DNA from: Candidatus Sericytochromatia bacterium
GTDB lineage: Bacteria; Cyanobacteriota; Sericytochromatia; S15B-MN24; UBA4093
NCBI GenBank assembly: GCA_036676985.1
Contig: JAKFBU010000026.1
Location: 224,001-288,000 of the forward strand
Direction of reading: 5' to 3'
Length of the DNA stretch: 64,000 bases
Under the pieces are notes generated by a model, which saw only the letters and a program-made list of their open reading frames with translations, did no database searches and was not told the origin of the DNA. Shown in pieces: positions 57,461-58,412 of the stretch. The translations under genes and the position numbers were made by a program. How positions within the stretch are numbered: the first letter of the stretch is position 1; every line of letters starts with the position of its first letter.

Positions 57461-57528
57461 GCTCCGGTGCTAACGGCGTGGGGCCCGGCGGACAATTCCG
57501 CCGGGCCCCACGCCGTTAGCACCGGAGC
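57461..57528. repeat. 32-bp perfect inverted repeat with a 4-nt loop
   Basis: GCTCCGGTGCTAACGGCGTGGGGCCCGGCGGA-CAAT-TCCGCCGGGCCCCACGCCGTTAGCACCGGAGC. Confidence 0.9.
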
Positions 57529-58412
57529 TAGATGCCGTTGAGCCACATGTCGTTGACCAGGCCGGTCTGGCCGTTGCGGACGAAGGAGCCCTCGGTGGTG
57601 ATGAGGTTGCCCGCCGAGTCCTCCTTGTTGACGGCCTTGCCGCCGATGCTCATCTGGGTGATGCCGAGCTCGGAGGGCTTCATGGACTGGTTGGTGCCGT
57701 CGCCGTTGCTGACCATCATGGTGAGGCCGTTGTCCTCGAGCTTCTTGAGGTCGGCGGAGTCGAGGTAGCCCTTGCTGGTGTCGATGCCCAGGTACTCGGC
57801 CTCGGCCTTGAGGGTCTCGTAGGCATCCTTGTGCTTGACGCCCTTGCTGTCGACGGTGTCGAGGGGGCCGCCCTTGAAGGCGAGCACGCCGTCGCCCTTC
57901 TCGGCCCACTTGGTCGACGTGGCGCCGTCGACCTCGATGCCGTGCTGGTCGACCGTGGCGTTGGTGTCGCCGTCGCCGTTCAGGTCGAAGACGAGGGGAT
58001 CGTTGCGGACGCGCTCGGCGGCCTGCTCGACGGTCTGGCCACTGTTGAGGGCCTCCTGGAAGACCTCGATGTTGTGCTGGGTCGGGTTCTGGATGCCCTG
58101 TGCCTGCAGCGCCGCCGTGGGGTTCGCCTTGGCCTGCTGGACCGAGTTCACCGGGGCGCCGATGAACGAGAAGTCCATCTCGCCGCGCATGGCGGCATCC
58201 AGCTTCTTGCGGAGGTCCTCGGCGATCGCCACGCTGCCGATCTCGAGCTGGGTGGGGTCCCCGCTGGGCACGACCGTGCTCTTGTCGGGCTCTTGGGGCG
58301 AGGGGGCGACGATCTCGATGTCGGTCGACGTGAACTCCTGGACGGGCTGCGCCTTGGGCGGCAGCTTGATCGCGGTGTACATGTCCACCGATCCGGACTG
58401 GAACATTTCCAT
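57528..58412 (-). CDS. Protein with a C-terminal FrpC-like calcium-dependent self-processing module
   Basis: DPLVFDLNGDG...W...DGVL...AYETL...NGDG...ELGI...VNK...GN...GSF...D.W pattern; GGGGGAGG RBS. Confidence 0.7.
   Translation of the reverse strand: MEMFQSGSVDMYTAIKLPPKAQPVQEFTSTDIEIVAPSPQEPDKSTVVPSGDPTQLEIGSVAIAEDLRKKLDAAMRGEMDFSFIGAPVNSVQQAKANPTAALQAQGIQNPTQHNIEVFQEALNSGQTVEQAAERVRNDPLVFDLNGDGDTNATVDQHGIEVDGATSTKWAEKGDGVLAFKGGPLDTVDSKGVKHKDAYETLKAEAEYLGIDTSKGYLDSADLKKLEDNGLTMMVSNGDGTNQSMKPSELGITQMSIGGKAVNKEDSAGNLITTEGSFVRNGQTGLVNDMWLNGI

Follow-up and report, generated by a model that had tools for sequence, protein, structure and literature searches.

Can the Asp-Pro self-processing of the FrpC exoprotein be carried by a small protein that has no RTX repeats? 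The question is raised by a gene on the minus strand, at positions 57528..58412, of a 64,000-nucleotide stretch of contig JAKFBU010000026.1 from Candidatus Sericytochromatia bacterium (hereafter the window). An initial annotation, made from the sequence alone, saw in its product of 294 amino acids a stand-alone relative of Neisseria FrpC's self-processing module (SPM). According to the excerpts of Kuban et al. (PMC7078468) to which all statements from that paper refer here, the SPM is the hallmark of one subclass of RTX exoproteins and does not fire until type I secretion has brought it into Ca-rich surroundings. In the present case it forms the C-terminal end of a small protein, in a genome free of RTX, and most of the structural Ca sites appear to be gone. 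The reading that best explains the data as a whole, and which we regard as probable, is a two-part protein, leaderless with respect to export, in which a passenger (residues 1-138) is followed by a minimal self-processing SPM (residues 139-294).

The locus is a real gene. The reading frame translates to exactly the 294 residues quoted in the initial annotation and ends in a TAG stop; its GC content at third and second codon positions (GC3 0.97, GC2 0.40) is the same as in other window genes, and 22 relatives were found at E<=1e-45. There is no alternative in-frame start upstream of the ATG, because a stop codon occurs in frame 11 codons before it, and a ribosome-binding site (RBS) graded strong, GGGGGAGGG (58419..58427, minus strand), stands 6 nt before the ATG. 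The encoded protein (P0001) is acidic (31 kDa, pI 4.4) and contains no Cys.

Is the resemblance to FrpC real? Compared with the PDB, the single sequence ranks the FrpC SPM first, with an E-value of 0.51 that alone is not significant. A profile of the 23 relatives aligns with the same chain at E 0.0017 (profile positions 138-287 against chain residues 1-168), and the alignment begins exactly at the Pro after the scissile Asp. An AlphaFold model, built from the 23-sequence alignment with no templates, has a predicted local distance difference test (pLDDT) score of 84-97 over most of residues 140-290. With this model, i.e. a predicted and not a solved structure, Foldseek returns the two FrpC SPM entries 6sjx and 6sjw (E 2.8e-8 and 4.2e-8, probability 1.00, template-modelling score on the target 0.64), and the next match has an E of 0.03 and a probability of 0.06. 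VIA-align gives a Z of 15.9 with FrpC SPM (root-mean-square deviation 2.6 A over 141 residues, 24% identity), the next chain reaching Z 2.7. A unique match of this kind is meaningful because the SPM fold was described as novel, resembling nothing in the PDB (PMC7078468). That fold consists of two perpendicular sheets, a helix-turn-helix and paired N- and C-terminal strands (PMC7078468); the first strand of the module (residues 140-142) and its last (residues 282-290) are both present in the predicted model. A precomputed Pfam match, PF26745.1, is found on the 294-residue protein and on 12 of its 22 relatives (13/23), and an Atlas look-up gives the name of PF26745 as 'SPM' (Pfam 38.1). Pfam and NCBIfam scans of the protein with a library that does not hold PF26745 found no family at E<=10. 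Judged from profile and predicted fold, residues 139-294 (57531..57998, minus strand) are a true homologue of the FrpC SPM, minimal in size and reaching to the C-terminus. The structural comparison was the check that the initial annotation had proposed, and its notion of a stand-alone SPM, without RTX and behind a 138-residue passenger, is now backed by the profile, the fold and the invariant Asp-Pro.

The residues that matter for processing in FrpC can be located in this module. They were mapped by hand from the single-sequence and profile alignments, with the FrpC numbering of PMC7078468 and with residue 1 of the 6sjw chain taken as P415; the numbering holds, since W451, W519 and D579 of that paper land on Trp, Trp and Asp of the chain. 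The predicted scissile bond, Asp138-Pro139 (57996..58001; this and the following coordinates are on the minus strand), aligns with FrpC D414-P415 and is invariant in 23 of 23 sequences, though the two residues preceding Asp138 vary freely among them (RN, AH, KG, LC, GG). The Asp138 codon is GAT at 58001-57999, just where it had first been placed, and Pro139 is encoded by CCC at 57998-57996. Asp288 (57549..57551), invariant in 23/23, is in both alignments the counterpart of FrpC D579, whose replacement by Ala abolishes cleavage (PMC7078468). Trp169 (57906..57908), likewise present in 23/23, aligns with W451 of the narrow port round the scissile bond. The loop of Ca site I, D143-L-N145-G-D147-G148 (57969..57986), corresponds to D419/D421/D423/G424 of FrpC, and the remote ligand of this site, D174 (57891-57893), to D456. 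Across the 23-sequence alignment D138, P139, D143, G148, W169, D174 and D288 are invariant, and N145 and G191 (the latter aligned with FrpC G477) nearly so; D147 of site I is neither. FrpC G491 aligns to Ala203.

What might the module do? By analogy with FrpC, the likeliest function is self-cleavage of Asp138-Pro139 as the module folds, and this is quite probable; for this protein we infer cleavage, Ca dependence, cross-linking and export alike. A route by way of a twisted amide and an anhydride has been proposed for FrpC (PMC7078468). If it applies, the module would fold with its first strand (140-142) paired with the last (282-290), a pairing described for the N- and C-terminal strands of FrpC in the same paper, and this would strain the Asp138-Pro139 amide. 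The side chain of Asp138 would then attack its own carbonyl and the bond would break. The 14.9-kDa passenger would leave with a C-terminal aspartic anhydride, which could be hydrolysed (plain cleavage) or could acylate a nearby amine (covalent link). Ca2+ would probably still aid folding, by means of the retained site I and a transient site made by the Asp138 carbonyl and Asp288, with fewer ions than the four plus one of FrpC. The computed fragment masses, 14.9 and 16.4 kDa, agree with the values of about 15 and 17 kDa predicted at the outset. The further suggestion of the initial annotation, a system for covalent tagging, adhesion or matrix cross-linking that is exported by a non-T1SS route, is a conjecture.

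Several observations weigh against self-cleavage. The alignment suggests that of the four EF-hand-like Ca sites of FrpC only site I is intact. Site II (D462-E474) corresponds to K180..D188, which is shorter by four residues and has lost ligand positions 1, 3 and 5; it is the internal Ca-loop that the initial annotation took to be deleted, which it is, and the degeneration of two further sites had gone unremarked. Site III is represented by D211-T-S-K214, with a one-residue deletion and an invariant Lys214 at ligand position 5. In site IV, V234-S-N-G-D-G, residues N236, D238 and G239 are kept, but position 1 is Val234 and the Glu of position 12 is missing. The central part of the FrpC alignment has low posterior confidence, and the fate of sites III and IV is therefore less certain than that of I and II; on this alignment two to three structural Ca sites would have been lost relative to FrpC. 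FrpC D478 has no aligned counterpart, and W519, which in FrpC makes a T-shaped Trp-Trp pair with W451, is replaced by an invariant Met232, so that the pair is not kept. A Ca2+-rich compartment is not assured, because there is no signal peptide, conserved neighbour or transporter. The fold has a role without the Asp nucleophile, since about half of the wider family is Ser-Pro, and the passenger can function without Asp-Pro chemistry, since a paralogue on contig C1 of the same genome has it before a Ser-Pro module.

How is Asp-Pro distributed in the wider family? A word-indexed search gave the 22 relatives (229-384 aa, their source names all 'hypothetical protein'), and an exhaustive search gave 67 representatives at E<=0.001. 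Among the 81 proteins collected, a sample centred on the 294-residue query and not a census of the family, 74 have the motif -P-[LIV]-x-x-D-L-; its Pro follows Asp in 35 of them, Ser in 33, Lys in three, Asn in two and Gln in one. RTX repeats occur in only two of the 81 (P0062 and P0080, with Pfam HemolysinCabind in both). These two are Asp-Pro proteins, and phmmer reaches them from the 294-residue protein at E of about 1e-4 to 6e-4 in a search of 1.8 billion proteins. Most of the 79 non-RTX proteins end with the module. In a quick maximum-likelihood tree built from 82 module sequences the 25 closest rows fall into one clade (Shimodaira-Hasegawa-like approximate likelihood ratio test, 100), all of them Asp-Pro, with the Ser-Pro forms in other clades.

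Could the module then be a non-cleaving Ca-binding domain, or a purely structural SPM-like one, in which Asp-Pro is kept for a structural reason, e.g. Ca coordination, as is likely for the Ser-Pro relatives? Of the 74 motif-bearing relatives, 39 are Ser-, Lys-, Asn- or Gln-Pro forms, two Ser-Pro forms are encoded in the same genome, and several FrpC Ca sites as well as W519 are lost, all of which would fit such a domain. Asp-Pro is, however, fixed in all 25 rows of the clade though the flanking residues vary, D288 (= D579) and W169 (= W451) are invariant, and Asp-Pro in a strained turn is regarded as intrinsically labile in the discussion of PMC7078468. We consider a non-cleaving module unlikely for these reasons, and self-cleavage remains the preferred reading.

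The next question is where the protein would act. The absence of an RTX tail, stated in the initial annotation, is borne out: the protein has 0 Pfam families at E<=10 and 0 GGxGxD motifs, and it ends three residues past the last aligned SPM position. The whole genome (79 contigs, 4.68 Mb in total, 100% complete with 5.09% contamination) has 0 matches to PF00353, the model of the RTX repeat. The claim that a Sec signal is absent holds too, as no stretch is hydrophobic (the highest 19-residue Kyte-Doolittle mean being 0.6). No double-glycine leader is found in the first 30 residues, no ABC, HlyD or TolC genes in the 64-kb window, and no transporter or conserved partner adjoining the relatives' genes in the loci examined. 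No HlyD match in the genome exceeds the type I secretion system (T1SS) cut-off, the best scoring 151 bits against 208.65. On contig C76 (G000:C76 = L013:4606-10940, plus strand) there is a row of three genes, for an ABC transporter (two cNMP-binding domains, a C39 peptidase domain), a HlyD-family protein and an OEP; it is the only type I-like exporter candidate that was looked at. More OEP/HlyD-like genes lie near the C1 paralogue.

One alternative is that the protein is secreted through a type I-like exporter (ABC transporter, membrane fusion protein and outer membrane protein) without RTX, and that it clips and links in the Ca-rich exterior as FrpC does. The C76 row and the OEP/HlyD-like genes near C1 could supply the machinery, and the acidic SPM domain with its Ca-loop motifs is in keeping with such a destination. 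This route is nevertheless improbable, given a genome of 100% completeness with 0 PF00353 matches, a best HlyD score well under the T1SS cut-off, the lack of a transporter beside the gene or its relatives and the lack of a double-glycine leader; and because the protein ends three residues past the SPM, there is no room for a separate C-terminal secretion signal.

The passenger offers another line of evidence. Its first 60 residues (58233..58412, minus strand) form a Pro-rich leader that starts MEMFQSGSVD and is predicted to be disordered (pLDDT <50); hidden Markov model (HMM) matches to it run from Met1 in proteins of contigs C28, C1 and C56. Residues 61-134 (58011..58232, minus strand) are, from the alignment and AlphaFold, a helical part in which G77-E78 is nearly invariant and residues 112-134 form a helical hairpin; VIA-align matches to the helical passenger reach a Z of about 2 only. 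The passenger had been called Pro/Gln-rich, which is true only mildly (11 Pro and 14 Gln in 138 residues), and novel, which stands only in the sense that it has no Pfam or NCBIfam match; paralogues encoded in this genome contain parts of it. When residues 1-137 were used in a word-based search, the four closest relatives alone were found. The HMM of these residues, run against 22,795 genome open reading frames (ORFs), matches the gene itself (contig C26, 4e-45), the C28 protein (9e-23), the C1 protein (2e-15) and, weakly, the C56 protein (E 0.006), where the alignment begins at the internal Met of MEVFQSQSV.

With the family profile, four loci were found in the genome: the gene at 57528-58412 and those on C28, C1 and C39. 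The C28 gene (G000:C28:30955-31782, minus strand; L009:9956-10783) encodes a 275-residue Asp-Pro paralogue with a poly-Gly run before Asp-Pro, and lies 3 nt from a divergent gene for an MltA lytic transglycosylase. The C1 gene (G000:C1:46800-47897, minus strand; L010:9801-10898) encodes a 365-residue Ser-Pro paralogue with the same type of passenger and more D-x-D-G-D-G loops, and adjoins TldD/PmbA genes and an M50 peptidase. The C39 gene (G000:C39:161148-162752, minus strand; L011:9149-10753) encodes a 534-residue Ser-Pro SPM-like protein with a Sec-type signal peptide, and stands in a row of five ORFs (485-734 aa) that have no Pfam match.

The C56 protein is of a different kind. In von Willebrand D (VWD) domains of mucins and FCGBP there is a GDPH autocleavage, in which an Asp-Pro bond within the folded domain is split spontaneously, with a reactive Asp as a possible product. 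The C56 gene (G000:C56:145567-146614, minus strand; L012:9568-10614) encodes the 348-residue P0082, in which a PEPK-rich linker connects an ME-x-FQ..PPP leader with a VWD domain (Pfam E 9.1e-6, 26.5 bits against a cut-off of 22.9). Its model gives 48 Foldseek matches at E<=0.001 with the D assemblies of mucin, VWF and FCGBP, the best at 4e-7. Gly158-Asp159-Pro160 falls at the GDPH site and is invariant in 20/20 relatives. Seven of these 20 VWD relatives open with the leader ME-x-F-x-x-Q-x-V...PPPP, and in P0088, P0089 and P0091 a membrane-spanning segment follows it. A reciprocal HMM of the C56 leader matches the C1 protein (0.0064) and the product of 57528-58412 (0.015, below the inclusion threshold), both from residue 1. 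The E-values of this link are modest, and the case for it is made by reciprocity and by alignment from the first Met. If the link is real, one kind of leader precedes two Asp-Pro self-cleaving folds that are unrelated to each other, and no other indirect argument speaks more strongly for Asp-Pro cleavage as the purpose of these proteins.

The reciprocal HMM also matches an ORF on contig C73 (4e-4), at about 127312-128415 (L014:813-1916), which has the motif LEMFQASGVV..PPLPP. After ..ASPDP it has an in-frame TGA followed by 301 open codons with no Pfam match, and 13 nt past the TGA comes an 8-bp hairpin whose loop is GGU. Near this TGA there is no Rfam match to a SECIS element, and the local fold is no better than that of shuffled sequences. 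A broken gene, a pair of genes and a selenoprotein are all possible readings of this ORF.

Does the protein stay within the cell? The lack of a signal peptide would point to the cytoplasm; a place outside the cell would be suggested by the C39 signal peptide, by the VWD paralogue and by the membrane segments that some VWD relatives have. It is conceivable that the module folds without added Ca2+ and cleaves constitutively, as a single-use maturation or activation device that frees the passenger, or ligates it, in the cytoplasm. The protein has no export signal of any known kind, its gene is a solitary one, with an RBS and a hairpin to itself, and probably two to three Ca sites have been lost, one of them with Lys214 at a ligand position where it could replace the ion. 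We give this little weight, since site I and the D138/D288 site are retained, one module paralogue (C39) has a Sec-type signal peptide, and the leader heads a VWD domain, a fold of extracellular proteins, as well as the membrane segments of P0088, P0089 and P0091.

A more speculative proposal, to which we assign only a small chance, takes the ME-x-FQ...PPP leader as the mark of a family of self-arming proteins, Sericytochromatia-like and cyanobacterial. Interchangeable Asp-Pro autoprocessing domains (the minimal SPM here, VWD in C56) would free a leader fragment with a C-terminal aspartic anhydride, and this fragment would be attached covalently through an amine on a partner or on the cell envelope. 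Such a single-turnover ligation would be independent of transporter and RTX, and possibly of gating by millimolar Ca2+.

How does the protein compare with systems already described? With the FrpC SPM it shares the fold, Asp-Pro at the N-terminal edge of the module, the D-x-[DN]-x-D-G loop of site I along with the remote Asp, the narrow-port Trp and the essential Asp near the C-terminus. It differs in length (153 aligned residues as against 168), in its Ca sites (II deleted, III degenerate, IV partial) and in having Met for W519. The module is C-terminal and final here, whereas that of FrpC is internal, and there is no RTX block and no adjoining T1SS gene. The hosts differ as well, a soil or groundwater Sericytochromatia-like bacterium as against proteobacterial pathogens. 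Beside FrpC, ApxIVA is named in PMC7078468 and FrpA in PMC12538545 (likewise from excerpts); unlike RTX clip-and-link exoproteins, the present protein has no PF00353 nonapeptide repeats, no C-terminal T1SS signal and no nearby ABC/HlyD/TolC genes. With the clusters of about 283-376 aa that bear the automatic name 'SPM domain-containing proteins' it has in common a PF26745 assignment (here the precomputed PF26745.1 match) and a similar length. The nearest Atlas clusters, of 283 aa (514 members), 376 aa and 320 aa, all have PF26745 in 100% of cases, and the Atlas clusters are mostly Pseudomonadota.

The likeness to GDPH/VWD proteins lies in the chemistry of the Asp-Pro bond, and in the invariant G-D-P and same leader type of the C56 protein; the fold is unrelated, and VWD is not a domain of the 57528-58412 protein. 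The Ser-Pro SPM-like proteins (e.g. P0026-P0057; C1 and C39) have a homologous domain, usually C-terminal and without RTX, and C1 shares the passenger; they differ in having Ser for the Asp nucleophile, an extra D-x-D-G-D-G loop, an intact site II and a place in separate clades.

In the literature searched, which did not extend to subscription journals (Osicka 2004 among them), no study of a short SPM-only protein and no mention of the accession PF26745 was found. The SPM literature that was found deals, in the excerpts seen, with FrpC, ApxIVA, FrpA and close RTX homologues, and with tools derived from them (including the Linhartova review and NeissLock). Short SPM-only proteins are already labelled automatically in databases. 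What is new here is the ME-x-FQ...PPP leader that is common to the SPM protein, a Ser-Pro paralogue and a Gly-Asp-Pro VWD protein. If the 294-residue protein cleaves, Asp-Pro clip-and-link chemistry would be a free-standing building block well outside the pathogens, and this would be the smallest natural SPM (about 153 residues, with perhaps one or two Ca sites). A small SPM would be of direct use to the protein-ligation tools based on FrpC and FrpA (PMC7846742 and PMC12538545, as excerpted). The leader shared by SPM and VWD proteins is a testable handle on the purpose of the module in free-living bacteria.

The surroundings of the gene tell less. The closest named locus, at 52% identity, is from a Candidatus Sericytochromatia metagenome-assembled genome (MAG), and another is from an unclassified 'bacterium' MAG. 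The order aminopeptidase (PF10023)-SPM-SelD also occurs in the close relatives L001 and L002 and, by ORF layout alone, in L017 and L018; in the window a DacB gene is inserted into it, and the more distant relatives L015 and L016 have unrelated neighbours. The recurring order looks like plain chromosomal synteny. A link with peptidoglycan, considered because of DacB and a LysM-glucosaminidase nearby and MltA beside the C28 paralogue, was dropped because the neighbourhood is not conserved. Near-identical DNA was found in soil and groundwater metagenomes. A 203-nt contig from a rhizosphere metatranscriptome library (Logan contigs) covers 57816-58018 with one mismatch; it is a weak hint that the gene is expressed, weak because DNA carry-over is possible in such a library.

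Beginning at the last base of the stop codon is a perfect 32-bp hairpin with a 4-nt loop (57461..57528, minus strand; -81 kcal/mol, z -13.1), which is probably a transcript end or stabilizer. It is present in a single copy in the genome, and the notion that it is a repeat element was rejected on that account. It has no U tract, which is why a terminator scan misses it; a promoter/terminator scan over 57200-58700 gave no match. Assembly contigs of run X1 break at this inverted repeat.

The next gene downstream is selD (56372-57418, minus strand, ATG at 57418; AIRS N and C domains), which has a single in-frame TGA at codon 19 (..RKSG-U-ASKV..); the enzyme itself is therefore probably a selenoprotein. 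The local fold after this TGA is no better than that of shuffled sequences. Between dacB and the aminopeptidase gene, at 59800-60400, the GC content falls to 0.54-0.56, and a 70-aa ORF within this interval (60162-60374, plus strand) matches an IS1595-type zinc ribbon, though weakly and below the cut-off (E 7e-4). At the other end of the window lies a gene for a giant signalling protein of 1743 aa (922-6153, minus strand), with a 1642-aa paralogue near the C28 SPM gene (L009:13442-18370, plus strand); the pair is characterized by Ser/Thr kinase, AAA_16, TPR, GAF and GGDEF domains.

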